Positions 4,702 to 28,354 are shown, counted from the first letter of the stretch. The stretch is 39,096 bases of DNA from an uncultured bacterium (GCA_964001155.1 CAXFCD010000180.1:1-39096), one strand, 5' to 3'. Numbers and translations are program-made. The notes: generated from the letters alone by a model not told the origin.

Positions 4702-4996
4702 TGCCTTTGATAAAAAATAGCGAAAAGGGTGTGAATAAAATGGAAATCAGGGAGACAGTCAAATAATCTTGGCTGTACTTTAATTCGAAATAACCGGCAA
4801 CTTGTAAACATATAAACACATACCCAATCAAAATGAAATCCAGGTAATTTTCCAAAATGTGAGATATAAACATCGTTAAAGTCCAATCCCGATAGGTGCC
4901 AATTCCTTCTGCTGACCCAATAACATACATGAGTAACAAAAAAGCAAGCAATAGCAACATACCGCTGAGCGTTTTATCTTGTTGTTCGGTTTTCAT
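4679..4996 (-). CDS. Small integral membrane protein (about 3 TM helices), function unknown
   Basis: ATG at 4994-4996 overlaps the MMPL stop (TGA 4993-4995) as ATGA. Hydrophobic segments are LSGMLLLLAFLLLMYVIG, LDFILIGYVFICLQVAGYF and LISILFTPFSLFFI. The 3' end overlaps the next gene by 23 nt. Confidence 0.45.
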   Translation of the reverse strand: MKTEQQDKTLSGMLLLLAFLLLMYVIGSAEGIGTYRDWTLTMFISHILENYLDFILIGYVFICLQVAGYFELKYSQDYLTVSLISILFTPFSLFFIKGNEDQTDS

Positions 4997-7363: not shown

Positions 7364-7996
7364 ATGCCAATTGATGTTTCAAATCTGAAAGATCCATTTG
7401 TCCTTTTTGGAAATGGTGAAATTCCAACCCACCAAATTCCAATCCAAACCCTAAATAATGCAAGGTCAATCCTATGTGCAGACGGTGGCGCGGATAAATT
7501 GAACCAACTTGGATTTAAACCTAAACTCATTTTGGGTGACTTGGACTCTGCATCCACAGACTCTTTTGATTGTCCCACCATTGAATTGAAAGATCAGACT
7601 AAAACAGATTTACAAAAAAGTCTGGATTGGTGTATTGAGAATGGAATTTCTGAAATATCTCTTATTGGATTTTCGGGAGAAGATGATGACCATTGGATGG
7701 CAGCGCTTTGGACTCTTTTCACTTACCATGAAAAATTGGTTTTAGTTTTTTATTCCAACCATTCCAAAATTTTTTGCGTTGAGGGTGAGAAAACTATTTC
7801 TACCCATCCGGGACAAAAAATATCTATCATCCCAATCATGGAAAATGTCCAAATCACATCAACAGGATTAAAATATCCAATTGAAAACCATGTTTTGAAA
7901 CCACCTTCTTTTGGAACAAGAAATGAAGCACTGGGCGATTCGTTTTTTATTAAATCTTCCGGCCCTGTTTGGGCCTTTTTGAATTTTGAAAAGTAA
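7364..7996 (+). CDS. thiN: Thiamine pyrophosphokinase (thiamine diphosphokinase)
   Basis: 210 aa. TPK motifs are present: LCADGGADKL, LILGDLDS, DQTKTDLQKSLDW, and a C-terminal thiamine-binding beta domain (SIIP...TSTGLKYPI). Confidence 0.8.
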   Translation: MPIDVSNLKDPFVLFGNGEIPTHQIPIQTLNNARSILCADGGADKLNQLGFKPKLILGDLDSASTDSFDCPTIELKDQTKTDLQKSLDWCIENGISEISLIGFSGEDDDHWMAALWTLFTYHEKLVLVFYSNHSKIFCVEGEKTISTHPGQKISIIPIMENVQITSTGLKYPIENHVLKPPSFGTRNEALGDSFFIKSSGPVWAFLNFEK

Positions 7997-8013: not shown

Positions 8014-9402
8014 ATGACTCAATTTCATTACCTTGATTGGGCAATCCTATTCGCTTATTTCTTGGGACTGTTTTGGATTGGCATTTTCAAATTAAAAGAT
8101 CAATCTGAGTCGCAGGAAACATTTATCCTCAGCGGCAGAAAGTTGAGTTTGGGTGGATTTGTAGCAACGTTGGTAACTACTTGGTACGGTGCCATTTTGG
8201 GTGTAGGAGAAAACACATTTCTGTATGGTATCCAAACTTGGTTCATTTTTGCATTGCCCTACTATATTTTTGCTTTGGGATATGCCTTTTGGATAGCTCC
8301 CAAAATAAGAGAAAACAATTTTTTATCCATTCCAGATCATTTCCGATCTCATTACGGTGAATCTGCCGGGATTCTTTCTGCTTTACTGATCACATTCTTG
8401 GCAAGCCCTGCACCATACATTTTAAGTATGGGGATTTTGGTTCAATTCCTATTTGGAATAAATCTCGGTGCAGCCCTTTTGATCTCAACAATTTTCAGCG
8501 TTGTCTATGTCTGGAATGGGGGATTTTCTGCAGTCGTAAAAACAGACATTCTACAATTTATTCTAATGTTTGCTGGATTTTTTCTGCTGATCGGATTTTC
8601 TTGGAGTCAATTTGGTTCTCCTGGTGAACTTATAAAATCAACCCCAGAAACACATTTAGATCCATTGGGTGGAAACACTTTTCAATATGTTTTGGTTTGG
8701 TTTTTCATTGCCGCGTGGACATTCATTGATCCGGGATTTTACCAACGATGTGCAGCGGCAGATTCACCGGAAACAGCGAAAAAAGGTCTTCTCATTTCCA
8801 TCGGGTTTTGGGCTGTGTTTGATTTGCTCACCGTGTTAAGTGGACTCTATGCAGTTGCACTAATCCAAACGGACCAACCATTGTTATCTTTCCCACTTTT
8901 GGGTCAACATATTTTGCCTATTGGCATATTCGGATTATTTATCACAGGGATTTTGGCCACCATTATGTCCACCATTGATTCATTGAGTTTGATCAGCGCC
9001 ATCACATTTGGCCGCGATATTTTATGGCGAATCCACGGAAAACAGGTTGAATCAAATCCGGTCAAATTGATCCGGAAAGGATTGGTCATTATATCGTTCC
9101 TGTCACTTTTTTTAGCCTTTGCTGTTCCGTCTGTAGTGGTCCTTTTTTATACTATTGGTTCTGTTTTGATTCCCGGACTCATTTTTCCTTTTATTTTATC
9201 ATTATGGAATAAAAAAATATCTATTTCAGAAAAAGTTGCTAATCAATGGATTTTGATACCGGTTGCAGTGTCCTTCATTTGGTTTGGGCTTTCACAAGCG
9301 GGTGGAGATTCTTTCCTAGGAATCGAACCGTTTTATCCCGGAATGATTTTATCTTTTTTATATTTAGGTATGATTCGATACGGAAAAACGTATGGCAATT
9401 GA
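8014..9402 (+). CDS. Sodium:solute symporter family (SSS) transporter, substrate unknown
   Basis: 462 aa and polytopic (about 12-13 TM). SSS-like N-terminal region: ILSGRKLSLGGFVATLVTTWYGAILGVGE. It starts 18 nt after the TPK stop and overlaps the CYTH gene by 11 nt. Confidence 0.8.
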   Translation: MTQFHYLDWAILFAYFLGLFWIGIFKLKDQSESQETFILSGRKLSLGGFVATLVTTWYGAILGVGENTFLYGIQTWFIFALPYYIFALGYAFWIAPKIRENNFLSIPDHFRSHYGESAGILSALLITFLASPAPYILSMGILVQFLFGINLGAALLISTIFSVVYVWNGGFSAVVKTDILQFILMFAGFFLLIGFSWSQFGSPGELIKSTPETHLDPLGGNTFQYVLVWFFIAAWTFIDPGFYQRCAAADSPETAKKGLLISIGFWAVFDLLTVLSGLYAVALIQTDQPLLSFPLLGQHILPIGIFGLFITGILATIMSTIDSLSLISAITFGRDILWRIHGKQVESNPVKLIRKGLVIISFLSLFLAFAVPSVVVLFYTIGSVLIPGLIFPFILSLWNKKISISEKVANQWILIPVAVSFIWFGLSQAGGDSFLGIEPFYPGMILSFLYLGMIRYGKTYGN

Positions 9403-9859
9403 AATTGAACGAAAATTTCTAGTGAAAGAACCACCCTTTCATTTGGCAATAAAATCTCTACGGATTCGGCAAGGGTATATAGTGAATGATCAAAATCAAG
9501 TCATTCGCGTCCGGGAAAAAGGGGATGACTATTTTCTCACAATCAAGGGAAACAATATAGGAATCTCACGGCTGGAATACGATTTCCCAATTTCGAAAAA
9601 TGATGCTGAAGATTTATTAAAGCATTTCTGTGAAACTTCCATGATCGATAAAACCAGACATTATGTTGAGCATGAAGGGCACACTTGGGAGGTGGATGAA
9701 TTCCATGGTGAAAATGAAGGACTCATTGTTGCAGAAATTGAATTAGACTCAGTAGATGAACAATTTGTTATCCCTGATTGGGCAGGTGAGGAAGTCACTT
9801 CAGATGAGCGATATTATAATATGAATTTGGCAATATACCCTTTTAAAGATTGGAAATAA
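9392..9859 (+). CDS. CYTH-domain protein (triphosphate tunnel metalloenzyme; inorganic triphosphatase or class IV adenylate cyclase-like)
   Basis: 155 aa. The N-terminal signature EIERKFLV (ExExK) is present, followed by alternating charged beta strands (VRVREKGDDYFLTIKG, RLEYDFPI, WEVDEFHGENEGLIVAEIEL). Confidence 0.85.
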   Translation: MAIEIERKFLVKEPPFHLAIKSLRIRQGYIVNDQNQVIRVREKGDDYFLTIKGNNIGISRLEYDFPISKNDAEDLLKHFCETSMIDKTRHYVEHEGHTWEVDEFHGENEGLIVAEIELDSVDEQFVIPDWAGEEVTSDERYYNMNLAIYPFKDWK

Positions 9860-9867
9860 TATTCAGC

Positions 9868-10887
9868 TTATTCCATGTCTGATGAATAGTCACCCTTTGT
9901 GGCGAGGCTATTCAATTTAGCACGTTTGTAAAATGCATCTTGAGCCGCAGGTACATTTTCTGCACTTCCACCCCATGCTTTCAATGCTGGCGCTTGAAGT
10001 GCCCGGCCGTAAGAATACGTCAAATTCCAAGGGCTTGTTTCACCTAAAATTTGATTCATAGCATTGAGATGAGCTGATGCATCTTCATCACTTTGTCCTC
10101 CGGAAAGGAAAGCGATCCCAGGAACGGCTGCAGGCACACATCTTTTTAAGACCGTAACGGTCAAGTCCGCAACTTCTTCCACACTGGCTTGGTCAGGACA
10201 TTCATAACCAGACAAGACCATATTCGGTTTTAGAACCATGCCCTCCAGCTCAACATTTTGCCCGTACAATTCATAAAAAACTGTGTGAAGCACTTCTTCC
10301 GTTACGACAAAACTGTCTTCAATGGAGTGTGCACCATCCATGAGAATTTCCGGTTCCACAATTGGCACCAATCCGTTTTCCTGGCACAATGCTGCATACC
10401 TCGCCAAAGCATGGGCATTGGCTGCGACACAAGTACTGCTGGGTTCTGCATCGCCAATTGTGATGACAGCACGCCATTTTGCAAATCGTGCTCCCAATGA
10501 ATGATATTCCTTTAGTCGGTCACCGAGGCCATCTAAACCAGCGGTTACTTTTTCGCCATCTGTTCCTGCAAGGTCGTGGGCACCTTTGTCCACTTTAATG
10601 CCAGGAATCACATTGAGATTGGTTAAAAATTCAGGATAAGGTGTCCCATCCTTTAAAGTTGATTGACGAAGTGTTTCATCAAATAAAATAACACCACTGA
10701 TGAATTCTTCCATCCCCGGTGTGGTAAATAACATATCACGATAGGCATTCCGATTCGCTTCTGTACTTTCCACATCAATGGAATCAAATCGTTTGGTGCA
10801 GGTTGGTGTACTTTCATCAGCAGCAAGAATTCCACGACCTTTTTCTACCATTGTGTTTGCAATTTCAGTTAAACTATTCCAACTCAT
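9868..10887 (-). CDS. fba: Fructose-bisphosphate aldolase, class I
   Basis: 339 aa. GILAADES motif near the N-terminus, Schiff-base lysine context MVLKPNMV, and C-terminal LTYSYGRALQ. It lies 21 nt downstream of pfp on the same strand. Confidence 0.9.
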   Translation of the reverse strand: MSWNSLTEIANTMVEKGRGILAADESTPTCTKRFDSIDVESTEANRNAYRDMLFTTPGMEEFISGVILFDETLRQSTLKDGTPYPEFLTNLNVIPGIKVDKGAHDLAGTDGEKVTAGLDGLGDRLKEYHSLGARFAKWRAVITIGDAEPSSTCVAANAHALARYAALCQENGLVPIVEPEILMDGAHSIEDSFVVTEEVLHTVFYELYGQNVELEGMVLKPNMVLSGYECPDQASVEEVADLTVTVLKRCVPAAVPGIAFLSGGQSDEDASAHLNAMNQILGETSPWNLTYSYGRALQAPALKAWGGSAENVPAAQDAFYKRAKLNSLATKGDYSSDME

Positions 10888-12250: not shown

Positions 12251-14194
12251 ATGAAACCTATTCTCTGGACACCTCCTCATCCTGAAAAAACCCAAATGGG
12301 CCAATTCATTCGCCGGGTGAATGAAATTTACGAATTAGAAATTGGCAACTACGACGAATTATATAATTGGTCTGTGAACCATATCCCAGAATTTTGGAAA
12401 CAAATATGGGAATTTTGTGAGGTTAAATATTCCATACCCTTTACAAGCGTGGTAGATGATATCAAGCAAATGCCTGGAGCAAAATGGTTTGAAGGATCCA
12501 AATTAAATTTTGCGGAAAATTTGCTTCAATTCCGAGATGACCATCCGGCAATCCATTTTAAAGGCGAAGGTCAACCGGTTCGAACATTGACTTATGAAGA
12601 ACTATTCAATGAAGTAGAAAAATTGGCTCATTCCCTTCGTGAAATGGGTATTCAAAAAGGTGATAGAGTCGTTGGTTTCATTCCCAACATTCCAGAAGCA
12701 ATTATCGCAATGTTAGCAACATCATCTATTGGCGCGATTTGGAGTTCATCTTCTCCAGATTTTGGAATTAAAGGTGTTTTGGACCGTTTTACTCAAATCG
12801 AGCCAAAGGTAATCTTTGCTGCAAATGGATATTATTACAACGGTAAAACATTTGATTCCCTGGAAAAACTAAAAGGTATTTTATCCAACCTGCCCACTAT
12901 AGAAAAAGTCGTGGTGGTTGAATATGTTGATGGAGAAACTGGCATCAGTGATGTTGATAACGGTGTCCTTTATTCGGATTTTATATCCAAATCACCCTAC
13001 CCTCTCGAGTTTGAACATCTCCCTTTTGATCATCCGCTTTACATCATGTATTCCTCCGGAACAACAGGGCTTCCCAAGTCTATCGTTCACGGCGCCGGTG
13101 GAACACTGATCCAACATCTTAAAGAGCTATGTTTACATTGTGACATTAAACGATCTGACACAGTATTTTATTTTACCACCTGTGGATGGATGATGTGGAA
13201 TTGGTTAGTATCGTCCTTAGCAGTAGGTGCGACAGTTGTTTTATTTGATGGATCACCCTTTCATCCAAATGGAAATGCAATGTGGGAATTAACGGAAGAG
13301 CTCGGAATTACTTTATTTGGGACTAGCGCGAAGTTTATTGATGCCTGTAAAGAAGCAAATATCAAACCAAAAGACATTGCGGATTTAACATCTTTAAGGG
13401 CAGTTTTATCAACAGGATCTCCGCTTGTGGATGAAAGTTTTGATTATGTTTATGAACAAGTGAAAGAAGATCTATTACTTGGATCCATCTCTGGCGGGAC
13501 AGATATTATTTCCTGCTTTGCCCTCGCTAGCCCTATGCTACCTGTCACAAGAGGTGAATTACAATGTCGTGGATTGGGGATGGACATTCATGCTTTCGAT
13601 GCCACTGGACAATCCATGATCAATGAAAAAGGCGAGTTGGTGTGTACCTCAGCATTCCCATCAATGCCTGTTTATTTCTGGAATGACCCGGATGGTATTA
13701 ATTATCAAAACGCTTATTTCAATACCTTTCCAGGTATTTGGCACCATGGGGATTTTATTCGAATTTCTGAATATGGGAGTTTGAAGATCTATGGCCGCAG
13801 TGATGCTACCTTAAATCCCGGCGGAGTTCGAATCGGAACAGCAGAAATATACCGCGTTGTGGAGGCCATCGACGCTGTGGAGGATAGTCTGGTTATTGGT
13901 CAAGAATGGGAAGGAGACCAACGGATAATCTTATTTTTGAAAATGAAAAATGGATATGAACTAAGTGAAGACCTCATCAAAGGAATCAAATCACAGATTC
14001 GGACTAACTGCTCACCAAGGCACGTCCCGGCAAAGGTCTTGGAAACCATAGGCATTCCCTATACGATTAATTTGAAGAAAGTGGAAATCGCTGTGAAAAA
14101 AATCATCCAAGGCGAAGATGTGACCAACCGGGATGCCTTGGTGAATCCGGAAGTGTTGGAATATTATAAGGATATTGAGGAATTAAAATACTAA
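12251..14194 (+). CDS. Acetoacetyl-CoA synthetase (acetoacetate-CoA ligase, ANL superfamily)
   Basis: 647 aa. AMP-binding motif YSSGTTGLPKSIVHG. The N-terminal region (LWTP...F...YELE...YDELYNWSV...EFW) and the length are typical of acetoacetyl-CoA synthetases rather than acetyl-CoA synthetase. Confidence 0.8.
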   Translation: MKPILWTPPHPEKTQMGQFIRRVNEIYELEIGNYDELYNWSVNHIPEFWKQIWEFCEVKYSIPFTSVVDDIKQMPGAKWFEGSKLNFAENLLQFRDDHPAIHFKGEGQPVRTLTYEELFNEVEKLAHSLREMGIQKGDRVVGFIPNIPEAIIAMLATSSIGAIWSSSSPDFGIKGVLDRFTQIEPKVIFAANGYYYNGKTFDSLEKLKGILSNLPTIEKVVVVEYVDGETGISDVDNGVLYSDFISKSPYPLEFEHLPFDHPLYIMYSSGTTGLPKSIVHGAGGTLIQHLKELCLHCDIKRSDTVFYFTTCGWMMWNWLVSSLAVGATVVLFDGSPFHPNGNAMWELTEELGITLFGTSAKFIDACKEANIKPKDIADLTSLRAVLSTGSPLVDESFDYVYEQVKEDLLLGSISGGTDIISCFALASPMLPVTRGELQCRGLGMDIHAFDATGQSMINEKGELVCTSAFPSMPVYFWNDPDGINYQNAYFNTFPGIWHHGDFIRISEYGSLKIYGRSDATLNPGGVRIGTAEIYRVVEAIDAVEDSLVIGQEWEGDQRIILFLKMKNGYELSEDLIKGIKSQIRTNCSPRHVPAKVLETIGIPYTINLKKVEIAVKKIIQGEDVTNRDALVNPEVLEYYKDIEELKY

Positions 14195-15192
14195 TCCAAC
14201 CGATCCAAAACACTCAATAGATCAACAACTCTGTTTGAGTAACCCCATTCATTATCATACCAATTTAAAGTTTTAACGAAATTGCCTTCTACTACTCTGG
14301 TAAAGGGCGCATCAAAAATGGAAGAATGGGGATTCCCAATTATGTCGGTGGAAACCACCGGCAAGGTGGAATATTCCAACACATTTTTTAAAGGTCCATT
14401 ATCTGCTGCTGTTTTGACGGCATCATTCACTTCTTCAACAGTTACATCTATTTCTAACCGGACATTGAAATCCACCACAGAACCGTCCGGTACCGGAACA
14501 CGCATGGCGATACCATCTAATTTCCCATTCAATTCCGGGAGGACTTTTCCCACAGCGCGAGCTGCGCCGGTTGTGGTGGGTATGACATTTTCTGCGGCAG
14601 CCCTACTACGGCGCCAATCTGAATGAGGGACATCCGCCAATCGTTGATCGTTGGTATATGCATGAATCGTATTAATGACGCCTAATTCAATCCCAAATGC
14701 ATCATTCAATACTTTTGCCATTGGCGCTAAACAATTGGTGGTACAGGATGCATTGGACACAATTTTGTGTTCCGGTTTGAGACCATCATCATTCACACCT
14801 AAAACAACAGTATAATCAATGTTATCCTTCGCCGGGACGGTTAAAACCACTCGTTTTGCACCTGCTGAAATATGATTTTCCAATTGAGACTTTTGTCTAA
14901 AGATCCCCGTGGACTCAATGACAAAATCAATACCCATCTCTGTCCATGGAAGTGCCCCGGGATTCCGTTCTGCCAACAATTTAACAGATTGGCTTTCTGT
15001 TTTCATCACATCACCTTCTAAAATAACGGACTCAGGAAATCGTCCCATGACAGTATCATATTTCAATAAATAGGTTAATGCAGCCTTGTCAAAAATATCA
15101 TTGATTGCCACAACATCAACATTTTGTTTTGAATTCAAAATCCGAAAAACCGATCGTCCGATTCGTCCGAAACCATTTATTGCAACTCTCAT
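14191..15192 (-). CDS. gap: Glyceraldehyde-3-phosphate dehydrogenase, type I (canonical, catalytic Cys present)
   Basis: I prefer the ATG at 15190-15192 (MRVAINGFGRIGR), which overlaps the upstream TGA as ATGA. The 21-aa N-terminal extension in the ORF track is unlikely. Motifs present: SNASCTTNCLAP, IHAYTNDQ, TTTGAARAVGKVLPEL, AMRVPV, WYDNEWGYS. Confidence 0.9.
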   Translation of the reverse strand: MRVAINGFGRIGRSVFRILNSKQNVDVVAINDIFDKAALTYLLKYDTVMGRFPESVILEGDVMKTESQSVKLLAERNPGALPWTEMGIDFVIESTGIFRQKSQLENHISAGAKRVVLTVPAKDNIDYTVVLGVNDDGLKPEHKIVSNASCTTNCLAPMAKVLNDAFGIELGVINTIHAYTNDQRLADVPHSDWRRSRAAAENVIPTTTGAARAVGKVLPELNGKLDGIAMRVPVPDGSVVDFNVRLEIDVTVEEVNDAVKTAADNGPLKNVLEYSTLPVVSTDIIGNPHSSIFDAPFTRVVEGNFVKTLNWYDNEWGYSNRVVDLLSVLDRLD

Positions 15193-16208
15193 GCGGCACC
15201 TCCTAAAGCGGCATATGCATCTACCATGTCCAAGATTCTTTTGGAAAAACCCCAACCGTTATCATACCAGCAAATTGTTTTTAATAGTGCATCCTTAGTT
15301 ATCATGGTTGCCTTCGCGTCGTAAACCATGGTTTCTTCCCTACCGGTAACATCACTAGAAACGATGGGGTCATCTGTGTATCCTACAATCCCATTAAGGG
15401 AATTTTCAGAAAATTGTTTTACCATCGTATTTGCTTTTTCAATAGATGGCATCGTTTTGAGTTCAGTCGTTAAATCAACACAGGAGCCATTTGGCACAGG
15501 CACATTAAACGCAATTCCATCTATTTTCCCTTTGAATTGGGGCATGATTTCTTCTACGATTGTAGGGGCAAATGTTGTATTAGGAATAATATTTTCCACC
15601 GCAGACCGACTCCGCCTGAGATCTATCCCCACCGCATCTGCCAATGGTTGATCGGCTGTGTAGGCATGAACTGTGGTCATCATGGCTCGTTCAACACCAA
15701 AAGATTCATCCAACATTTTCAGCATCAATGCCAGGACTTGGGTTGTGGAAGAAGTGGTTGAAATTATTTGGTCTGAGGCTTCAATGGTGGATTCATTGAT
15801 TCCAGGAATCACATAGCGGTCGATGGTCTCCTGAGGATTGCGAGTGGTAAAAACACGCTTTGCACCCGCATCCAAATGCAGGGCTAATTCTGATTTTTTT
15901 AAAAAGCGGCCAGTGGCATCAATCACCACATCCACATCATAGGCATCCCAGGGAATCGTTCCTGGTTTTCCACCACTAATGACACGAACGCGTTGACCGT
16001 TTACAACCAAATGATTTCCGTCTAAGGTGACTTTATCCTTCATTGAACCGTGGACAGAATCCCGGACGAGCAAATAATGGAGTGTCTCCGATGAACCGAA
16101 ATCACTGAGAGCAACAAAATTATAATTGGAATTATTATAACCGAGTCGAAAAATATTCCGGCCGATACGGCCGAAACCAAATAAGGCAATATTTACGGGT
16201 TTACTCAT
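15189..16208 (-). CDS. GAPDH-like paralogue lacking the catalytic cysteine (Cys->Ser) and several phosphate-site residues
   Basis: 339 aa with ATG at 16206-16208. The Rossmann motif is intact (NIALFGFGRIGRNIF) and TVHAYTADQ is retained. The active-site stretch reads STTSSTTQVLAL where the neighbouring gene has SNASCTTNCLAP, TTFAPT replaces TTGAAR, and AFNVPV replaces AMRVPV. Confidence 0.85.
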   Translation of the reverse strand: MSKPVNIALFGFGRIGRNIFRLGYNNSNYNFVALSDFGSSETLHYLLVRDSVHGSMKDKVTLDGNHLVVNGQRVRVISGGKPGTIPWDAYDVDVVIDATGRFLKKSELALHLDAGAKRVFTTRNPQETIDRYVIPGINESTIEASDQIISTTSSTTQVLALMLKMLDESFGVERAMMTTVHAYTADQPLADAVGIDLRRSRSAVENIIPNTTFAPTIVEEIMPQFKGKIDGIAFNVPVPNGSCVDLTTELKTMPSIEKANTMVKQFSENSLNGIVGYTDDPIVSSDVTGREETMVYDAKATMITKDALLKTICWYDNGWGFSKRILDMVDAYAALGGAA

Positions 16209-16534
16209 AATTTAATTTTTTCTTTTTATATTCATGTTTCAAGTTAAAAAACAATTTTAAATTAATAAAAACCTTATAAGGTACTAATTCAATTATTTTT
16301 GAATTCGTATATGTTGTCACCCGTATTTGAGAAGGAGGAAAATAATAATAAAGGATAACAAGCGCACCCCCTAGTTTTATGTTTGTGGTAGGATATGTAG
16401 ATTTTGATATGCGTAATTACTACCGCTAATACTAGTTGATAAGGTAATTAGGAACAAAAATTTAATTCAGAAGACATTGCGTTGCCTAAACCATTTTTAG
16501 CAGTCCATTGCATAGCTTAGAAGCAGTTGATTAA

Positions 16535-17182
16535 TCAGTTTAATTTTAAACTATAAGTTAGTCCATAAATATTGATCTCTTCAGAACCCGAACTAGAAAA
16601 ATCTCCTTTTTTGAAAATATAAAATATTTTAATCGAATTTTTACGTGGAAGATTAAAAGTAAACCCCAAGGAAAATCGATACCCATCTAATGTTTGATTC
16701 TCAGCTTTTGGGAAGTGCATTAATTCTCCAGATAAAAAGGGTTCAATTTTCTTATCTAACATGTACTGAAATGTCAATTTGTTTCTTATCAAATTTTCAA
16801 TATCCTTCTCCTGTTCTTTCGTTCTTTGAAACCTTGAACGATACTTTACACTTATAGGGTTTAAATTAAATTTATATGTGCCTCCAAAACTAATTCGCTT
16901 TTTAATCTTCTCATCAAAAATGGCATAACGATATGGTATATGAATATTCAGTCTATCATTAATCTTATATGTTATGGATACTTCAGAAAAGGTTTGGTTA
17001 AATGTAGATAGCTGGTTTTTCAATCTTAATTCTTGCTCACATTCCAATTCAAGGGAGTATGGAAGTTGTTTTTCAAATTTTATACTAGTCCAAAATTGAT
17101 TATCATCTATTCCAAAAATTTTATTGAATAAAAGATATAAAAAACATAATCCATAAGAAATCCATTTACTATTAATAAACAT
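16535..17182 (-). CDS. Small predicted outer-membrane beta-barrel protein (DUF2490-like)
   Basis: 215 aa with an N-terminal hydrophobic signal (WISYGLCFLYLLFNKIFG). Amphipathic alternating strands run throughout (VSITYKI, LNIHIPYRYAIF, ISFGGTYKFNL, YRFSLGFTFNL, IYGLTYSLKLN). The family assignment is tentative. Confidence 0.4.
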   Translation of the reverse strand: MFINSKWISYGLCFLYLLFNKIFGIDDNQFWTSIKFEKQLPYSLELECEQELRLKNQLSTFNQTFSEVSITYKINDRLNIHIPYRYAIFDEKIKKRISFGGTYKFNLNPISVKYRSRFQRTKEQEKDIENLIRNKLTFQYMLDKKIEPFLSGELMHFPKAENQTLDGYRFSLGFTFNLPRKNSIKIFYIFKKGDFSSSGSEEINIYGLTYSLKLN

Positions 17183-17212
17183 CTTATTTAGAAAATTAAT
17201 AATGATTCTTTA

Positions 17213-17803
17213 TCAAATATTATTTGACTCATTATGCAAAATTCTAATTCGTACTGTGTCTCTCAAAAAATTCATTCTGCGGATTTCAAAATGTTGAATT
17301 TTCAATCCGGTCCTCTCTTGTAAGTCTGCTAATAACTTATTATGATTTTCTGGTTTGATATTATCAATTCTTTCATATTGAACTACAGTTTGTATCAATA
17401 AGTTTTTCCGCCAATATGCTTCAAGGCTATATGTTAAAACAACTAAGGCTACGTTTGAAAATAGTAGTTCTTCAATAGATATTTCTGCATGATTCAAAGC
17501 ATTTATCACACCGATGGTGATAACAATAAACAAATATGTCATTTCTTTAATTGGAATAGGGTCAGTCCTGTATCGAAGTATCGCAAAGACTGCAAATAGT
17601 CCAAATGCAAAACCAATATTGATTGTGAGATTTCCTAAAAGAAAGGCAAAAAAGAATATAAGTGAATTGAACATGAAATAAGTGAAAACAAAGTCATTAT
17701 TTGATGGATTACGATAATAGATTAATTTTATAATGATAAAAGCGATTAATAGATTAAATCCATATCGGAAGCATAAATTGGTTAATTCAGGTGTAATTTC
17801 CAT
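17213..17803 (-). CDS. DUF4956-like integral membrane protein (usual genomic partner of bacterial VTC-domain proteins)
   Basis: 196 aa with 4 TM helices, followed by a soluble C-terminal tail. The stretch FAVFAILRYRTDPIPIKEMTYLF resembles the conserved (I/L)RFRT segment of the family. It lies 12 nt downstream of the VTC gene. Confidence 0.55.
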   Translation of the reverse strand: MEITPELTNLCFRYGFNLLIAFIIIKLIYYRNPSNNDFVFTYFMFNSLIFFFAFLLGNLTINIGFAFGLFAVFAILRYRTDPIPIKEMTYLFIVITIGVINALNHAEISIEELLFSNVALVVLTYSLEAYWRKNLLIQTVVQYERIDNIKPENHNKLLADLQERTGLKIQHFEIRRMNFLRDTVRIRILHNESNNI

Positions 17804-17815
17804 AGAAAGCCTATT

Positions 17816-18586
17816 TTATTTTTTAGATAATATTTTATTAATTTGAAATATTCTTGGTTTAAATCGATTGTATTTTAAATGTTCATTAAGATGCAGGATA
17901 CCCATGCAATATTTACTAAATCTCATATCTTGAATTTTATGATTTTGTAAAATTCTAATAAAATTTGATTTTGGGTTAAATTTATTTTGTTTGATTTCTG
18001 CAATTACAAGTTCAGAAAACTTGGTATTATTTTGACTGTTTTTTATAATAAGATTTGTATCAATTGTAAGCCGTTCCTTAGAATCATTGTCTACCAAAGT
18101 AATTCGAAAAAATTTTAATTTTAATTTTTGAATGTATTTATCATCCTTAGTCCCAATTATATCTGAAATAAATTTTTGTTCTTTTTCGCCGATATCTATA
18201 ATTGCTTCATCTAATAATTGTCTTTTTTTTATTGTTCTATTTTTATTATTCTTAACCTTTATTTCAAAGAATGATTGGCCAGTATTTTGGTAGGTTCTGG
18301 ATCTTATTTTATATCGTTTTTTATTTCCATTATGATGTTGTTTATAAAACTGGAAATCGTGCGTATCAAAATAGATTGTGTCATAAATAAAGACACGTTC
18401 ATTATCAATCTCTAATATTTTATAAAAGGGTATTAATTGTTTTAAAATAGATGGTAATTGAAATTGATTAAAAACATACTTTGTATCCTTACGATCAAGA
18501 AGTTTTACTTTATCCAATTCATTTAAGTAGAGTGGCTTAAATGTGTTGACGATATCTAAACAAGCATAATCATCTTTTTTAATCAT
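17816..18586 (-). CDS. VTC-domain protein (polyphosphate polymerase-like triphosphate tunnel fold)
   Basis: I prefer the ATG at 18584-18586 (MIKKDD...); the track start at 18601 is a GTG. VTC-domain pattern: RKDTKYVF, IYDTIYFDTHDFQFYKQHHNGNKKRYKIRSRTYQNTGQSFFEIKVKNNKNRTIKKR, RLTIDTNL, VIAEIKQN. Confidence 0.75.
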   Translation of the reverse strand: MIKKDDYACLDIVNTFKPLYLNELDKVKLLDRKDTKYVFNQFQLPSILKQLIPFYKILEIDNERVFIYDTIYFDTHDFQFYKQHHNGNKKRYKIRSRTYQNTGQSFFEIKVKNNKNRTIKKRQLLDEAIIDIGEKEQKFISDIIGTKDDKYIQKLKLKFFRITLVDNDSKERLTIDTNLIIKNSQNNTKFSELVIAEIKQNKFNPKSNFIRILQNHKIQDMRFSKYCMGILHLNEHLKYNRFKPRIFQINKILSKK

Positions 18587-19193
18587 TGTCTGAATATACA
18601 CTATTTAATGTTCCAGGAGTACCGTTACCTTCAGAAGCAGACCAATTCTTGGAAATTGAATTATCTAAAAAGGGATTAATTAACTCAAGCGTTGCACCAT
18701 TGCCATCAGCTTGTATAGGCCAAGGTAAAGTATCGTCATATTCTACCATATCTACTAATAGGCCGTTGGAATCAAACAATCTTACTATATCACCACCTTT
18801 TCCTAGACCAAAGCCCAGATTTCCGTAATACGATTCTATATCGGGAAATAAAGCTGCGAATTTTAAAGTATCTGAGCAAAACACCAGATATTGACCTGGT
18901 AGTATTTCTGTGTGAGGTGCTATGATAAAAATATGTTCATCATTCTCATCTTTTAATACCCAAGAATCCATATTAACGGTATTATTACTATTGTTATAAA
19001 TTTCAATCCAATCATCGGAATCATAACTATCTGAAGAATGATAATTGATTTCGTTTATCACCAAACCAAAATCTGTGGTATCATTTATATCTGTATTTTC
19101 ATCTTCGCAACTATAAGAAATGAATCCAATAATCATGATGGTATTAGTAACTACCAGTTTATATTTTGATGTATATGTTTCGAAATTCTTCAC
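18579..19193 (-). CDS. Lamin-tail-domain (LTD) lipoprotein
   Basis: GTG start at 19191-19193. The signal peptide has a lipobox-like GFISYSC. LTD pattern: LVINEINYHS...DDWIEIYNNSNNTVNMDSWVLKD..., PGQYLVFC, GKGGDIVRLFDSNGLLVDMVEYDD, DGNGATLELINP. Confidence 0.7.
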   Translation of the reverse strand: MKNFETYTSKYKLVVTNTIMIIGFISYSCEDENTDINDTTDFGLVINEINYHSSDSYDSDDWIEIYNNSNNTVNMDSWVLKDENDEHIFIIAPHTEILPGQYLVFCSDTLKFAALFPDIESYYGNLGFGLGKGGDIVRLFDSNGLLVDMVEYDDTLPWPIQADGNGATLELINPFLDNSISKNWSASEGNGTPGTLNSVYSDND

Positions 19194-19226
19194 TTTATTG
19201 GTTATAATTTTTTATAAATACAGGGT

Positions 19227-21218
19227 CTACTTCATTAATATCATTTTCTTTGTTTGTCTAAACTTTCCTACCTCAATATTGTAGATATAAACTCCTGATG
19301 ACACTAGGTTACCCTCATTATTAGTGGCATCCCATTGGATTGATTTGTACCCTTTAGTTTGCTCTACACTCAATAGATCCCTCACCAAAATACCTAACAT
19401 GTTATATATTTGTACTTTGATAAATGAATCTTCTGGTAAAATATATTCAATAGTTATTACAGGGTTAAATGGATTAGGGTAGGGTTCACCTATTTTAAGC
19501 TGATCCGGATATATATTATCTGATATTTCCGCATTTATTTGTTCAAAGATGATTGACTCAATGTTGAAACCTCCTTGAACAATTTGAATTTTGAAAATGA
19601 TTTCTTCACTGTCTATCTCTACACTTGGTATAACCAAATCTTCCCAATTGTACCACCCGCCGGTGCTAGGAACATTCATTACGCCAATATTCTGCCCATC
19701 TATTTGAGCAAAAAAGATTCCACCAGAACTTGGCGCAGCTACACTAAAGTAAATTTCATAAGCCCCAGGATTTACATCTCCAATTGTATAGCTAAGCCAT
19801 TCTGTCGCATCTGTCCACCCAACATTATAAGGCATCCCATTGGCATCACCATTTGATTCTATATCAACACCGTCATTTCTGAAAGTCCAACCTTCATTAT
19901 AACTTCCGTCTCCATTATTATAGTAATCGCCGTCATGATATGATAAACCCCTAACCCCTATATCATACTCAACTGCTGGAATGATACCCGGTATAGAATG
20001 TAGGTTAAAAGGTTTTGAGACCTCTCCATACTCAGGATCAGTAAGAGAAGCAACTACACCAGGCAGTTGGATACAATTTTCAAGTTTTAAACTATTTGCA
20101 AAATTTAACAGCGCAGCTTGAGCATAAAGTTCAGACGGCTGCGTTCCATTCCCACTCCAATAATCAATGAGTGTTTGGTATTCTGTAGATACAAGAGCTG
20201 AATAAGGGCTTGAAATTTTTTCAACTTTTTTATGCGTCCAAAAATTCCAGCCTATATTATTATCTTCCAAAAGGTTGGAAACCTCATAATACCACTGATT
20301 TGAGTTTTCTCCATACTCACCCATCCAAAGAGGGGTATTGTGTGAATTCCGCATGGCAATATAAGGCTGAATGGTATTTAAAGAAGTTTCTGACCAATAT
20401 TTATGGAAGGAATAGGACATATTATCATCCCAGGGAGGGGTCAGTCCCGTAAAGTCAGTTCCGTACCAGTTGCCTTCAATAAAAATAATATGATTTGTAT
20501 CTACTTCTCGTATTGCATTTGTAATATCAATGTATAGCTGTCTTAAATCGTTTGTACTTATTCCTTCTGGTAAAACGGGTTCATTGATTAAATCATACCC
20601 ACCTATCAATGTTTCATCAGCATAATACTCTGCGATCTCCTGCCAGATCTGTATAGTAAGTTCTTTATACTCATCTTCTAACCACAATCTTGCTGTCCCA
20701 TCACTATCACTGATAGGGCCTCCATTCTGCCCACCGGGAGCACAATGCATATCTAAAATGATATACATATTATAAGTCTCACACCAAGATATGAGTGAAT
20801 CAATAATTGAATATCCAATCGGCATCATCTCATCTGTATGATGAAATTGTTTATAATGAAACGGCACCCTTATATGATTAAAGCCCCACTCTGCTATCTG
20901 ATCAATATCTGTTTGGGCTACATAATTTTCTCTGTATAGATCCCAAAATTCTTCTGCAAAATCATCGTCAACCAGATCAAGGACATGACCTTCGATTTGT
21001 GTTGGAGATTCAAATCCTTCTATCCATGCCTGATTATGTAACATGTAGCCTTCAGGAACAAGCCAACCTCCCAAGCCAAACCCTCTAAGTAATATCGGCT
21101 CACCATTCCCTTCAACAATTTCTGTTCCATCTGCATGTAAGAATCCCTGTGCTGATACAACATGCAGAGAAAGATTTAGAATAAATATCATTCGCATGGC
21201 ATACATTTTCCAAAACAT
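19227..21218 (-). CDS. GH5 glycoside hydrolase (beta-glucanase, exo-1,3-beta-glucanase-like motifs) + CBM6-like module + T9SS CTD
   Basis: GH5 motifs are FNHIRVPFHY, IILDMHCAPGGQNGG, the acid/base in DLINEP and the nucleophile in LWMGEYGE. The CBM6-like module reads GVDIE...VGWTDATEWLSYTIG...PSTGGWYNWEDL. The CTD is YPNPFNPVITIEY...SGVYIYNI...KKMILMK. The start is uncertain: ATGs at 21218, 21206, 21197 or 21191, the last giving an ATGA overlap with the upstream stop. Confidence 0.85.
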   Translation of the reverse strand: MFWKMYAMRMIFILNLSLHVVSAQGFLHADGTEIVEGNGEPILLRGFGLGGWLVPEGYMLHNQAWIEGFESPTQIEGHVLDLVDDDFAEEFWDLYRENYVAQTDIDQIAEWGFNHIRVPFHYKQFHHTDEMMPIGYSIIDSLISWCETYNMYIILDMHCAPGGQNGGPISDSDGTARLWLEDEYKELTIQIWQEIAEYYADETLIGGYDLINEPVLPEGISTNDLRQLYIDITNAIREVDTNHIIFIEGNWYGTDFTGLTPPWDDNMSYSFHKYWSETSLNTIQPYIAMRNSHNTPLWMGEYGENSNQWYYEVSNLLEDNNIGWNFWTHKKVEKISSPYSALVSTEYQTLIDYWSGNGTQPSELYAQAALLNFANSLKLENCIQLPGVVASLTDPEYGEVSKPFNLHSIPGIIPAVEYDIGVRGLSYHDGDYYNNGDGSYNEGWTFRNDGVDIESNGDANGMPYNVGWTDATEWLSYTIGDVNPGAYEIYFSVAAPSSGGIFFAQIDGQNIGVMNVPSTGGWYNWEDLVIPSVEIDSEEIIFKIQIVQGGFNIESIIFEQINAEISDNIYPDQLKIGEPYPNPFNPVITIEYILPEDSFIKVQIYNMLGILVRDLLSVEQTKGYKSIQWDATNNEGNLVSSGVYIYNIEVGKFRQTKKMILMK

Positions 21219-25789: not shown

Positions 25790-27271
25790 TTAGGGATCCA
25801 TTTTTGTACCATAGTTTAAATAACTATCGGTTGTTATCACTGGGAAAGAAGGTACCACTATTGGGTAAGGAACTCCCCGCTGAGTAACAATCATGTCCGT
25901 TGATGTTAATTCAATTGACTCAAATGCATCCATATTAATTTCTATTTGATCCGAGTATATACCCTGCAGAGAATCAATAACCGGGTTCATGAATTCAAGC
26001 CATTTATCTTGGGTTTTCAAATCCTTATTTTCGGACTTTATTTTTGCCATGTACTCTCTGCTTAACATTGCATCTTTCCACATACTTACATTGGATTCAA
26101 CGATCCAGTTTTTATTGTAGCCGGATTGGTAACATTGATTGGTTATTTCTTCATCGCGAAACAAATCAGCAATTGCAAGCCGGAGTTGTTCTGGAAATTC
26201 ACTCCTATTCAATTTCCTCTTTCGAAAAACAAGAGGGTGCGATCTCAGTTTATCATTGAAATCCTTCACAGTCCACCCATTTCCATTGTATTGTAATAGA
26301 ATTGAATTGGGGTCTATTTCAAAATCATTGCTATCAATGGTAAATGTAGGTTGGTCTAATAATTCCGGCTCATTCCAAATTGCTTTATTCAAGGCACTCT
26401 TTTTTACAGAGTCTAATTTGAAGAAATGTTTTGAAGCCCTATCTGCATATTGATAGAAGATATCAGGATTAAACGATATCTCTTTACCCGACATCAATTC
26501 TTTCACCCATTTAAAATAGGATGATTTCGCTTTTTGTTCAGTAAGCCGTTCAGTCACATCATTCCACCTTTGTGCCTGACTTGCTTCAGAAATTTGAATC
26601 TCATCCTTCCAACCATTAATGACCATGACCAAATAAGAACTGTCTTCTGTTGCAATCGGGCCTATGAATTGTCCTTTCTTGATATCAGGGTCAAATAATG
26701 ATTTATGGAAAATGTCCTGCTCTCTTTCAAACCATGAAATTTCTCGTTTTGGCGCAGATCCTCCCCACAGGTTATCATGAATTGAATCCAGAGGAACATT
26801 CTGTATAACTAATTCTTTAATCTTGTCAACAAGTTCTAAATCTGGAAGATTAAGATACTGCACGAACACAGTCCGGCCAGCGAGTTTGTAAGCAGATTTT
26901 AATTCATGATCTTTAAGCTCTGTCCTATCATAAAATTCTTTCGCATAATGTACCTGCCTCATGGCCTGTTCCTTACGGCCGGTTAATGCTGAATTTAATT
27001 GGTCATCTAAACTTCCTGCATTTTGCGATTCGTACTCTATAGCAATTAACTTTTCACTAATCAGTGAATTGAGAATTATTTTTTTATGAATATAATTGGA
27101 TTGTCTGCAATAATCAGGACGGATAGTATATTCCGCTCTTCTGATAAAATCCTGTATAGTAATGCTACTGGAACCGACTTCAGCTAATATTTGGAGTTCA
27201 GGAATATCAGACTGAGTAGTACAACCCATAGAAAAAAATATGAGCAATAATGACAGTCGAAAGACTTTCAC
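25790..27271 (-). CDS. SurA/PpiC-like periplasmic chaperone lipoprotein (peptidyl-prolyl isomerase family, possibly degenerate)
   Basis: GTG start at 27269-27271. Lipobox FFSMGC. SurA-N-like start ILAEVGSSSITIQDFIRRAEY, a long helical body, and the rotamase-like remnant GQFIGPIATEDSSYLVMVING. The functional call is tentative. Confidence 0.45.
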   Translation of the reverse strand: MKVFRLSLLLIFFSMGCTTQSDIPELQILAEVGSSSITIQDFIRRAEYTIRPDYCRQSNYIHKKIILNSLISEKLIAIEYESQNAGSLDDQLNSALTGRKEQAMRQVHYAKEFYDRTELKDHELKSAYKLAGRTVFVQYLNLPDLELVDKIKELVIQNVPLDSIHDNLWGGSAPKREISWFEREQDIFHKSLFDPDIKKGQFIGPIATEDSSYLVMVINGWKDEIQISEASQAQRWNDVTERLTEQKAKSSYFKWVKELMSGKEISFNPDIFYQYADRASKHFFKLDSVKKSALNKAIWNEPELLDQPTFTIDSNDFEIDPNSILLQYNGNGWTVKDFNDKLRSHPLVFRKRKLNRSEFPEQLRLAIADLFRDEEITNQCYQSGYNKNWIVESNVSMWKDAMLSREYMAKIKSENKDLKTQDKWLEFMNPVIDSLQGIYSDQIEINMDAFESIELTSTDMIVTQRGVPYPIVVPSFPVITTDSYLNYGTKMDP

Positions 27272-27283
27272 AAATAGCTTTTA

Positions 27284-28354
27284 TTAAAATGTAGTTGTAA
27301 TTGTATAAATCTCAACATCTCCAAGTAGGCCCATTGTTTTGTAAGCATAATCTATGGAAATAGATTTATTACCTAAATAAAATAATTTTATTCCTAAACC
27401 AGTAGTAATCCCAACATCAGTCCCATCGGGCAATAATTTATTCATTCCGCTTTTAAGACCACCTTTTAAACTAAATATTCCTATTCCGGGGATTTTATTT
27501 TCTAAGGAAACCCCCAAGTTTACTGTTTCATTATTGTTGTTTGGATGGAGAGCATCAGCTGCTAATGTTAATGTAAAATAATTACTTATAATTGGTTGGA
27601 TTGAAAAACCAATCCGAAAAATTAATGGTAATTCCCACTCAGATGTTCGAAACTGTCCAGCAACATCTCCATAATTTCCGTCTTCAAACTCAGAAATATC
27701 AATTGGCTGATAATTATCAATACCATCAAACTTCATTCTAGTACCGTAATTAGAGATACTCATTCCGATGTTCATTCCGTTCTCTTTTTTACCCGTAAAG
27801 GAAAAAAAATCAGTATTGACAATAACGCCTAAATCCACTGCAAATGCATTAGCAGAGCTATGCCAAATATTAGATCTAATATATTTAAATGAAGAACCAA
27901 AAGAGAACCATGATACAATTTTTCTAGAAAAAGAGAATGTTGCAGCCAGATCATTTGCCATAAATTTCTCGCCCGTGCCATCTTGGTATTCCAAAGTTGT
28001 TACTTCCATTTCGCCATAGTCCACCTGTGTAATCCCAAGCCCAAAAACACCAACTCCAGGCATCACAAGTGCCCCACCGGTAAAAAGTAAATCTACATCA
28101 ACTACCCACGGTTGTACCATGAAAAGCGCTGAATTTCTATTTAAGTTAGATAGTCCTGCAGGATTCCAGTATATGGAGGAAACATCATTCACAACTGCTA
28201 CCTGAGCTTCACCCATTGCATTTGCACTGCTTCCAATACCAATTTCCAGAAAATTAGCTGCCGTGGTACCATAACGGTAGATAGTCTGTGCCGACATTTC
28301 CTGAAAATTATTCGTCATTAATATCAAGATTACTATTTTGATGAATCTTATCAT
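27284..28354 (-). CDS. PorV-like / FadL-like outer-membrane beta-barrel (T9SS shuttle protein family)
   Basis: The ATG at 28352-28354 overlaps the upstream TGA as ATGA. Signal peptide ...EMSAQ. The PorV-type N-terminal signature is GTTAANFLEIGIGSSANAMGEAQVAVVNDVSSIYWNPAGLS. Alternating beta strands run to the terminal ...IYTITTTF. Confidence 0.55.
   Translation of the reverse strand: MIRFIKIVILILMTNNFQEMSAQTIYRYGTTAANFLEIGIGSSANAMGEAQVAVVNDVSSIYWNPAGLSNLNRNSALFMVQPWVVDVDLLFTGGALVMPGVGVFGLGITQVDYGEMEVTTLEYQDGTGEKFMANDLAATFSFSRKIVSWFSFGSSFKYIRSNIWHSSANAFAVDLGVIVNTDFFSFTGKKENGMNIGMSISNYGTRMKFDGIDNYQPIDISEFEDGNYGDVAGQFRTSEWELPLIFRIGFSIQPIISNYFTLTLAADALHPNNNNETVNLGVSLENKIPGIGIFSLKGGLKSGMNKLLPDGTDVGITTGLGIKLFYLGNKSISIDYAYKTMGLLGDVEIYTITTTF

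Follow-up and report, generated by a model that had tools for sequence, protein, structure and literature searches.

A VTC–DUF4956 gene cluster of marine Marinimicrobia as a candidate envelope-spanning polyphosphate module

We report here on four adjacent minus-strand genes, encoding an LTD lipoprotein, a VTC-domain protein, a DUF4956 membrane protein and a DUF2490 protein, which occupy positions 16535–19193 of a 39,096-nt contig from an uncultured bacterium (GCA_964001155.1, CAXFCD010000180.1:1-39096; the whole of this stretch is called the window), and which we tentatively read as the CotH-less, LTD-bearing version of a module of the form (exported CotH and/or LTD)–VTC–DUF4956–(DUF2490 or OprO/OprP-type porin) that may provide an outward route for polyphosphate (polyP). 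To this reading we give somewhat less than an even chance. The module itself is real, conserved and intact; its type was already known and is uncharacterised, and the LTD-only Marinimicrobia variant is new. Judged by its closest named VTC loci, which carry that name, the window is from marine Marinimicrobia (Neomarinimicrobiota), and an identical DUF4956 protein in the same gene order is found on at least 8 contigs from Tara Oceans and other marine metagenomes. An earlier note on this DNA, made by a model from the sequence alone, had proposed an envelope-spanning polyP system on a horizontally acquired island; the catalytic residues, the co-conservation of the genes and the alternation of DUF2490 with phosphate porins speak for the envelope machine, and it is the recent horizontal acquisition that has not stood up.

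In the usual view, bacterial polyP is a product of PPK enzymes and remains cytoplasmic. The module is a testable candidate both for the origin of surface or extracellular polyP and for the phosphoryl donor of secreted CotH-type kinases, and since it reaches Bacteroides and Pseudoalteromonas, cultivable hosts exist. In this lineage, which is uncultured and abundant in the ocean, it stands at the end of a locus for beta-glucan degradation, a hint that the breakdown of particles and the handling of phosphorus may be connected. The association of VTC and DUF4956 with CotH had already been noted beside Gram-positive pel loci (10.1101/768473), where the genes were treated as unexplained accessories and polyP was suggested to be cytoplasmic (10.1101/768473; 10.1101/2024.04.20.589940); in the searchable literature we found neither the envelope-spanning idea nor the alternation with Porin_O_P described below.

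The catalytic and inner-membrane candidates

The four open reading frames (ORFs) lie at the coordinates given in the earlier note, and the four families named there are all borne out by significant Pfam matches, with no hits in NCBIfam:

18579..19193, minus strand: LTD lipoprotein, 204 aa, GTG start (PF00932, E 6e-18, 65.6 bits against a cut-off of 34.3)
17816..18586, minus strand: VTC protein, 256 aa (PF09359, E 9e-26, 91.2 bits against a cut-off of 23)
17213..17803, minus strand: DUF4956 membrane protein, 196 aa (PF16316, E 1e-48)
16535..17182, minus strand: DUF2490 protein, 215 aa (PF10677, E 4e-21, 76 bits against a cut-off of 29.8)

The longest VTC ORF starts at a GTG at 18601; we prefer the ATG at 18586, because the 256 aa that it gives match about 120 homologues and the public gene calls. 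With that start the junctions, when recomputed, are exactly the −8, 12 and 30 nt of the earlier note, the 12 nt being those between the VTC and DUF4956 genes.

The VTC match spans positions 2–234 of the 235 in the profile (PF09359), and the protein, which is basic (pI 9.8) and has no signal peptide, transmembrane or hydrophobic segment, is predicted to be a cytoplasmic catalytic subunit with a triphosphate tunnel metalloenzyme (TTM) fold. It is a VTC domain alone, with neither the SPX domain nor the fused C-terminal three-helix transmembrane domain. A bacterial-only VTC profile, built from 21 sequences of Marinimicrobia, Bacteroidota, Verrucomicrobia and Chloroflexi metagenome-assembled genomes (MAGs), matched yeast Vtc2 (3g3o) at E 9e-4; PDB searches with the single sequence, with narrow profiles or with a C-terminal sub-profile alone did not reach Vtc4. 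Alignment with Vtc4 (3g3q) was obtained in HMMER with a profile spiked with Vtc2 and Vtc4 fragments, a procedure that inflates E-values; the 3g3q chain index plus 185 gives the Vtc4 numbering, as checked on 8i6v_E. An alignment that included a third Vtc2 fragment was discarded because MAFFT had misaligned that fragment.

The retained alignment pairs Vtc4 R196 with window R32, K200 with K36, R264 with R95, R266 with R97, E279 with E108, K281 with K110, Y359 with F159, R361 with R161, R373 with R172, E426 with E197, K428 with K199, S457 with S224 and K458 with K225. According to yeast cryo-EM, K200, R264, R266, K281, Y359, R361, S457 and K458 bind triphosphate and E426 binds Mn2+, mutating any of the eight triphosphate-binding residues lowers polyP, and K458 is the sole such residue to differ in the inactive Vtc2 (Ile) and Vtc3 (Leu) (10.1101/2023.01.27.525886); R264A/R266A/E426N is the catalytically impaired yeast complex of another structure (PMC9911596). 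Eight of these nine functional residues are identical in the window protein, the ninth being changed from Tyr359 to Phe159, and the eight are invariant in the 21 bacterial sequences whereas position 159 varies. The tunnel Lys and Arg residues, whose absence the earlier note had said would count against its reading, are therefore kept (K36, R95, R97, K110, R161 and K225). The window motif FSKYCMG aligns with FSKFIHG of Vtc4 and FSLYLQG of Vtc3, and the alignment is validated by the fact that the published Leu of Vtc3 falls in the K458 column.

An AlphaFold2 (AF2) model of the protein, of moderate quality (pLDDT 72.6), has eight strands with the conserved residues in i, i+2 patterns, and its top ten Foldseek matches are all CYTH/TTM proteins (probability 0.75–1.0), including YgiF, AtTTM3 and the thiamine triphosphatase ThTPase. 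As far as the model goes, the window protein may share the eight-stranded tunnel fold of the CYTH/TTM triphosphatases; it differs from them in falling in the VTC branch by hidden Markov model (HMM) and in having the Ser-Lys pair of Vtc4, a pair not known from these hydrolases. NCBI names such proteins 'polyphosphate polymerase domain-containing protein', and from the conserved residues we infer that the window protein is probably a polyP polymerase. With PPK1 and PPK2 it would have in common only the proposed product, polyP made from a nucleoside triphosphate; their folds are unrelated, and PPK is cytoplasmic and has no dedicated envelope apparatus.

DUF4956, the candidate inner-membrane translocon or VTC partner, is the most conserved of the four proteins (75–80% identical across Marinimicrobia). 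Helices are predicted at 5–29, 37–58, 63–78, 85–103 and 110–134, followed in the AF2 model by a C-terminal beta-alpha-beta-beta domain at 136–191, for which only weak, non-significant matches to the ACT domain were found. An RYRT motif lies at 77–80, in which Y78, R79 and T80 are invariant and R77 is nearly so; by the positive-inside rule, this motif, the Lys/Arg loops and the C-terminal domain would face the cytoplasm. Several Marinimicrobia DUF4956 proteins carry JGI labels with which our Pfam scans disagree, namely 'vacuolar-type H+-ATPase subunit I/STV1' (P0143, P0152, P0220, P0232 and P0284) and 'LrgA' (P0191). In one further locus (L108, 1525–2907) a single 460-aa ORF holds both DUF4956 and DUF2490; this could be a genuine fusion, but a stop codon lost through an error of sequencing or assembly is likelier. 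A protein joining inner-membrane and outer-membrane parts would be odd.

Co-conservation and the outer-membrane position

We annotated 135 related loci with purpose-built HMMs, spot-checked by Pfam, and made counts on 71 non-redundant DUF4956 clusters; in the proteobacterial and Bacteroidota loci the neighbours were annotated with the module-gene HMMs only. The earlier note stated that bacterial VTC genes typically lie beside DUF4956, and this holds: the two are adjacent in nearly every locus long enough for both, and their stop and start codons often overlap. The exceptions are L029, where 1.7 kb separates them, L011 and L091. The adjacent pairs occur in Marinimicrobia, Bacteroidota, Verrucomicrobia, Chloroflexi, Deinococcus, Alphaproteobacteria and Pseudoalteromonas. 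The full order LTD–VTC–DUF4956–DUF2490 recurs in several Marinimicrobia lineages and on 8 near-identical marine metagenome contigs, and the triad VTC–DUF4956–DUF2490 is found in Bacteroidota and in a Verrucomicrobia MAG, so that the co-conservation on which the proposal depended is present at both levels. Among the 8 near-identical copies, synonymous and non-synonymous differences were too few to inform. In Bacteroides thetaiotaomicron, BT3498-BT3499 are likewise an adjacent DUF4956–DUF2490 pair in a cultivable host, known to us from a transcriptome table only (PMC10434189).

The DUF2490 protein is predicted to be a small outer-membrane beta-barrel. It is basic (pI 9.4) and has a signal peptide, probably cleaved after IFG24; in its orthologues the signal peptide is conserved, ending in YG or FG and followed by DDNQxW, and Trp31, Arg53, Arg133, Glu153 and Gly173 are invariant. 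Members of the family match outer-membrane barrel families weakly but recurrently (DUF481 in 8 of 19, and also OMP_b-brl, KdgM and Porin_4), the best PDB profile match being the KdgM porin (E 0.38, not significant). For the family, a 2026 preprint reports outer-membrane barrel models and, in 51 of 60 members, signal peptides (10.64898/2026.07.29.741452). We consider that the barrel may act as a pore.

What follows DUF4956 is informative in this respect. Of the 71 clusters, 29 have DUF2490 and 16 have Porin_O_P directly downstream of DUF4956, and none has both; another gene or none was detected in 19, the order is reversed in 2 (alphaproteobacterial), and 5 lie on contigs too short to tell. Porin_O_P holds the DUF2490 position in 26 loci (the 16 clusters), which are Pseudoalteromonas-like and presumably proteobacterial and include a Pseudoalteromonas megaplasmid; their arrangement is (LTD-)CotH–VTC–DUF4956–Porin_O_P with tight junctions, and all six of the porins tested were PF07396 (E 1e-38 to 8e-54). 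OprP and OprO, of this family, are phosphate- and pyrophosphate-specific outer-membrane channels (PMC9769906). DUF2490 is likewise a basic, Arg-rich predicted barrel; it differs from them in size (about 190 mature residues against about 340) and family, may lack an open pore, and OprP and OprO serve uptake. Further, no outer-membrane gene was found in the Chloroflexi (L030, L033) or Deinococcus (L052) loci, nor do the Gram-positive VTC–DUF4956 clusters have one (10.1101/768473), and the alphaproteobacterial VTC–DUF4956 pair has genes for a PHO4 phosphate transporter (E 2e-107) and for Phytase-like esterases as neighbours. The alternation, these phosphate neighbours and the lack of an outer-membrane gene in the Chloroflexi, Deinococcus and Gram-positive clusters are the strongest evidence we have on the fourth gene, and point to an outer-membrane component and to a phosphate species as the probable cargo.

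In the Pseudoalteromonas sp. CuT4-3 megaplasmid (NZ_CP142031; L051, 4273–4969), a deletion leaves only the N-terminal LTD of an LTD-CotH protein and the last third of VTC, with DUF4956 and Porin_O_P intact; metagenome relatives that are 97–98% identical (L056 and L057) carry the full genes, and the module is therefore decaying in this strain. We had considered this plasmid locus as an LTD-only relative of the window and rejected it, as it is a deletion derivative with a truncated VTC gene whose intact versions encode LTD-CotH.

The same observations bear on where the polyP would remain. Conceivably it never leaves the cytoplasm or the inner face of the membrane, with DUF4956 as an anchor or an ACT-like ligand-sensing regulator and with DUF2490 and LTD merely co-regulated and forming no conduit. 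A Streptococcus intermedius preprint proposes cytoplasmic polyP and describes a DUF4956-type neighbour with four transmembrane segments and an ACT domain (10.1101/2024.04.20.589940), the weak ACT matches of our model go in the same direction, an outer-membrane gene is lacking after DUF4956 in the 19 of 71 clusters mentioned above, and DUF2490 is possibly closed. Against this, two barrel families fill the same position, one of them phosphate-selective, which is hard to understand unless a phosphate-like species crosses the outer membrane; the other partners are consistently exported, and the barrel gene follows DUF4956 closely or overlaps it. We consider cytoplasmic retention improbable.

Exported partners, proposed mechanism and direction of transport

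The LTD protein begins with a Lys-rich basic n-region and a hydrophobic stretch, followed by Cys29 and EDENTD. The lipobox is non-canonical at −3 and −2 (S and Y); the lipobox-type Cys and the acidic residues after it are conserved in the small LTD proteins of other Marinimicrobia. In Bacteroidota a Cys followed by acidic residues is the lipoprotein export signal, and by analogy this suggests that the LTD lipoprotein may be exposed at the surface. Beyond its orthologues, its best matches (186–202 bits) are the C-terminal LTDs of 955–964-aa LTD-CotH-LTD proteins (L015, L016 and L017) and, in the same range, an LTD ORF cut by the contig end in L014; against several other small LTD proteins it scores lower than against these C-terminal domains.

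The earlier note had remarked on the absence of CotH. For the 39-kb window this is correct (none was found by Pfam on ORFs of at least 120 aa, or when six-frame ORFs down to 50 aa were searched with a CotH HMM), but it gives an incomplete picture, given that the LTD protein resembles the C-terminal LTD of CotH proteins and that CotH holds the same position in relatives: in the commonest Marinimicrobia arrangement a 465-aa CotH lipoprotein is encoded directly upstream of VTC, where the window has LTD. Of the 71 clusters 33 have CotH, among them 14 of the 16 that carry the porin. LTD-only loci make up 2 of the 71, and the window is therefore a rare CotH-less variant and not a different system. 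In other Marinimicrobia a small LTD lipoprotein and large LTD-CotH-LTD(-dockerin) proteins occur together. Each CotH next to the module bears a signal peptide, a lipobox or a type IX secretion system (T9SS) tail, so a cytoplasmic VTC enzyme is consistently encoded together with exported partners.

The large exported Marinimicrobia proteins have the architecture LTD–CHB_HEX_C/Fn3_assoc–CotH–LTD, some with a dockerin (L014, L016, L017, L015 and L020), and a second protein with two LTDs and a dockerin adjoins the module in Marinimicrobia. Dockerins are unusual outside cellulosome-forming Firmicutes.

Considering these features together, we suggest that the cytoplasmic VTC protein would build polyP in its basic tunnel from the gamma-phosphate of a nucleoside triphosphate, as yeast Vtc4 does, and would pass the chain to DUF4956, probably an oligomer with its RYRT loop and C-terminal domain in the cytoplasm and an analogue, though no homologue, of the membrane channel in the yeast VTC complex. 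The basic DUF2490 barrel may then let phosphate species cross the outer membrane, or hold them there, and the acidic, possibly surface-exposed LTD lipoprotein would be the extracytoplasmic partner, for which relatives use a CotH lipoprotein or a T9SS-secreted CotH. The polymerase activity, the physical coupling of VTC and DUF4956, the outward direction, the pore function of DUF2490 and the role of LTD are the conjectural steps in this scheme. One component for each compartment, as the earlier note had it, does accord with the predicted features, namely a VTC protein with no signal or transmembrane segment, five helices in DUF4956, a lipobox Cys in LTD, and a signal peptide and barrel matches in DUF2490.

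The nearest parallel is the yeast VTC complex, with which the module shares the homologous PF09359 domain and the triphosphate and Mn residues, including Lys458 (PMC9911596; 10.1101/2023.01.27.525886), the pairing of a cytoplasm-facing enzyme with a multi-helix membrane protein, and, for an exported product, a compartment that would be topologically the equal of the vacuole lumen. The window differs in having no SPX or fused transmembrane domain, no detectable homology of DUF4956 with Vtc1 and Phe in place of Tyr359, and in adding a predicted outer-membrane barrel and an exported LTD or CotH. The Gram-positive pel-linked cotH/poly-phosphate polymerase/DUF4956 (/DUF4832) clusters share the VTC–DUF4956 core, the exported CotH-type link and the glycan locus (10.1101/768473; 10.1101/2024.04.20.589940); in the window an LTD-only lipoprotein stands for CotH, the diderm-specific DUF2490 barrel is added, and the neighbours are glycoside hydrolases, not Pel synthesis genes. 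A bolder version of the proposal would be a diderm trans-envelope polyP machine, comprising a Vtc4-like polymerase, DUF4956 as a translocon of a new type, a phosphate-selective DUF2490 or porin exit and either a surface LTD that holds the polymer or a CotH that uses it as phosphoryl donor where ATP is lacking, and forming the bacterial counterpart, possibly the source, of the eukaryotic VTC catalytic core; this we regard as rather unlikely.

Several points weigh against an outward polyP route. For the VTC protein, the alignments with Vtc4 passed the HMMER filters only with profiles spiked with eukaryotic fragments, and their C-terminal stretch scores only 3.7 bits on its own; Foldseek TM-scores of the model are only 0.3–0.4, with Vtc4 not among the matches listed; and position 159 is Phe in the window, in all Marinimicrobia and in some others (it is Tyr in most Bacteroidota), while Y359F lowered polyP in yeast (10.1101/2023.01.27.525886). 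For DUF4956, the AF2 model is of low confidence (pLDDT 61.5), because the homologue search with a diverse profile gave mostly near-identical Marinimicrobia proteins, and neither profile searches nor Foldseek linked the protein significantly with a channel of any kind or with the transmembrane domain of yeast VTC. Many DUF2490 barrels are reported to have a buried charge network inside (10.64898/2026.07.29.741452), a feature that would sooner suggest a small closed barrel than an open channel. The mature LTD protein (pI 4.05) has a net charge of −28 and therefore cannot bind a polyanion directly without bridging cations, on which ground we rejected direct binding of polyP through charge; and in 32 of the 71 clusters the stretch that was examined holds neither of the two exported partners, CotH and LTD. 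The uptake function of OprP and OprO means that the porin link leaves the direction unfixed, and in the searchable literature we found no experiment on any bacterial VTC, DUF4956 or DUF2490 protein.

An inward module would have DUF2490 or, in Proteobacteria, the porin admit external phosphate, pyrophosphate or polyP, DUF4956 import it, and VTC hydrolyse short polyP or trap phosphate as polyP. Marine heterotrophs often face phosphate scarcity, and many CYTH/TTM enzymes hydrolyse short polyphosphates; the structures nearest to the VTC model are those of tripolyphosphatases and thiamine triphosphatases, among them YgiF, AtTTM3 and ThTPase, the PHO4 importer and Phytase-like esterases of Alphaproteobacteria fit uptake, and those Porin_O_P members that have been characterised serve uptake and are induced under phosphate starvation (PMC9769906). 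However, the HMM places the protein in VTC and not in CYTH, the equivalent of Lys458 of the active polymerase is kept, DUF4956 resembles no known importer, and import leaves unexplained why exported CotH kinases are the commonest partners. We judge it distinctly unlikely. Only the outward model explains why a cytoplasmic, phosphoanhydride-forming enzyme is so consistently encoded with exported kinases.

Origin of the cluster and its genomic setting

The compositional contrast that had led the earlier note to suggest horizontal acquisition is genuine. Its hand counts of G+C (8 of 60 at 17821–17880 and 32 of 60 at 10081–10140) are exact, and the G+C fraction of the cluster is 0.278 against 0.384 ± 0.019, with a minimum of 0.345, in 157 equally long sliding windows taken from the rest of the window. 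This lies more than 5 SD below the rest and affects all three codon positions (0.18–0.25 against 0.27–0.42 at the third), and the encoded proteins are enriched in Phe, Tyr, Asn, Lys and Ile. Recent import of foreign DNA, for instance a mobile or defence cassette with no part in the physiology of the host, would account for the composition; it is nevertheless largely refuted, and we leave it only a minute chance. The named best matches of VTC (54–64% identity) and DUF4956 (75–80%) are from Marinimicrobia, and the closest copies of LTD and DUF2490 (the latter 45–61% identical) come from the loci of these matches. Almost throughout the Marinimicrobia loci examined, the cluster is 5–10 G+C points below its flanks, a smaller deficit being usual in other phyla. 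In one lineage (L001/L004), with a VTC protein 64% identical, the neighbourhood is the same, with two genes of glycoside hydrolase family 16 (GH16), a GH5 gene with a carbohydrate-binding module (GH5-CBM), GH12 and a T9SS-tailed protein, followed by LTD–VTC–DUF4956–DUF2490. We found no tRNAs, flanking repeats or integrase in the window and no matches to PADLOC. Among 72,556 plasmids only 10, each of them large and non-mobilizable, carry DUF4956, and it was found on no phage. Given the relatives, the shared low G+C, the synteny and the lack of mobility marks, the low G+C is an old, family-wide property of these genes; an ancient transfer is possible. A 20-nt inverted repeat (95% complementary) between 16452–16471, after DUF2490, and 18162–18181, in VTC, is probably due to chance in AT-rich DNA.

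The cluster is bounded by two non-coding stretches:

19194..19226: 33-nt spacer from the stop of the GH5-CBM6/35-T9SS gene to the LTD start
16209..16534: 326-nt AT-rich intergenic region (28% G+C), which closes the cluster ahead of two tandem glyceraldehyde-3-phosphate dehydrogenase (GAPDH) genes

Upstream on the same strand lies a locus of the beta-glucan utilisation type (TonB-dependent receptor, a 1173-aa protein, a PorV-like protein, three GH16 and GH5-CBM6/35), several genes of which bear T9SS tails, and the GH5 gene (19227–21218) ends 33 nt from the LTD gene. This spacer length agrees with the earlier note, as does the lack of a terminator-like site in it by a simple scan, and co-transcription of the cluster with the glycan locus is possible. 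The cluster could then be an accessory of that locus, perhaps phosphorylating or tethering glycans or secreted enzymes at the surface. The short spacer without a predicted terminator would suit such a role, as would the same glycoside hydrolase neighbourhood in L001/L004, where LTD overlaps the upstream T9SS-tailed gene by 4 nt, and the location of the Gram-positive version beside Pel polysaccharide genes (10.1101/768473). In the commonest Marinimicrobia arrangement, by contrast, genes for a UvrD-like helicase and a TonB receptor flank the module and glycoside hydrolases are absent, and most Marinimicrobia relatives lack the glycan linkage. The linkage may therefore be lineage-specific, and we hold an accessory role to be decidedly improbable.

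In the 326-nt region no ORF, RNA family (Rfam) or terminator was detected, and it does not resemble the 323-nt gap ahead of CotH in L002, a search for a CotH remnant being likewise negative. A scan for sigma-70 promoters gave 40 sites where 32 ± 6 were expected, which is no enrichment; the scan probably does not apply to this phylum. Beyond the region, the downstream genes encode two GAPDH proteins, an acetyl-CoA-synthetase (ACS)-type protein, phosphofructokinase and aldolase. The GAPDH paralogues (14191–15255 and 15189–16208, minus strand) are publicly called at 333 and 339 aa with a 4-nt overlap, and the longest ORF of the second runs 67 nt into the first. In L002 (3495–3646) and also L003, where CotH follows DUF2490, the gap holds the last 28 codons of the second GAPDH gene with its in-frame stop and, on the opposite strand, the last 21 codons of an ACS-type gene; the GAPDH/ACS block was therefore deleted there and the order in the window is the older.

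Other genes of the window are further removed from the module. In the glycan locus, the 1173-aa protein (28351–31872, minus strand), directly after the TonB-dependent receptor, has no Pfam match, and a 493-aa protein (25790–27271, minus strand), after the PorV-like gene, has only a sub-threshold match to SurA_N_2; the two occupy the positions of SusD-like and surface glycan-binding proteins in a Bacteroidota polysaccharide utilisation locus. Further T9SS cargo, a leucine-rich-repeat protein and an arylsulfotransferase-like protein, is encoded at 772–3875 and 3922–7281 (minus strand), and there is a LolA-like and MMPL pair, all unrelated to the module. The window encodes another triphosphate-tunnel protein at 9392–9859 (plus strand), of 155 aa and with a CYTH domain (PF01928, E 3e-12), whose gene lies after those of a sodium:solute symporter (8014–9402) and a thiamine pyrophosphokinase (7364–7996), so as to look like a trio for thiamine salvage with a triphosphatase; it is absent from three otherwise near-identical metagenome contigs (L040, L041 and L043). 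Finally, the class I fructose-bisphosphate aldolase gene (9868–10887, minus strand) is replaced in place by an analogous class II gene (PF01116) in a closely related contig, L038 (16913–17986).

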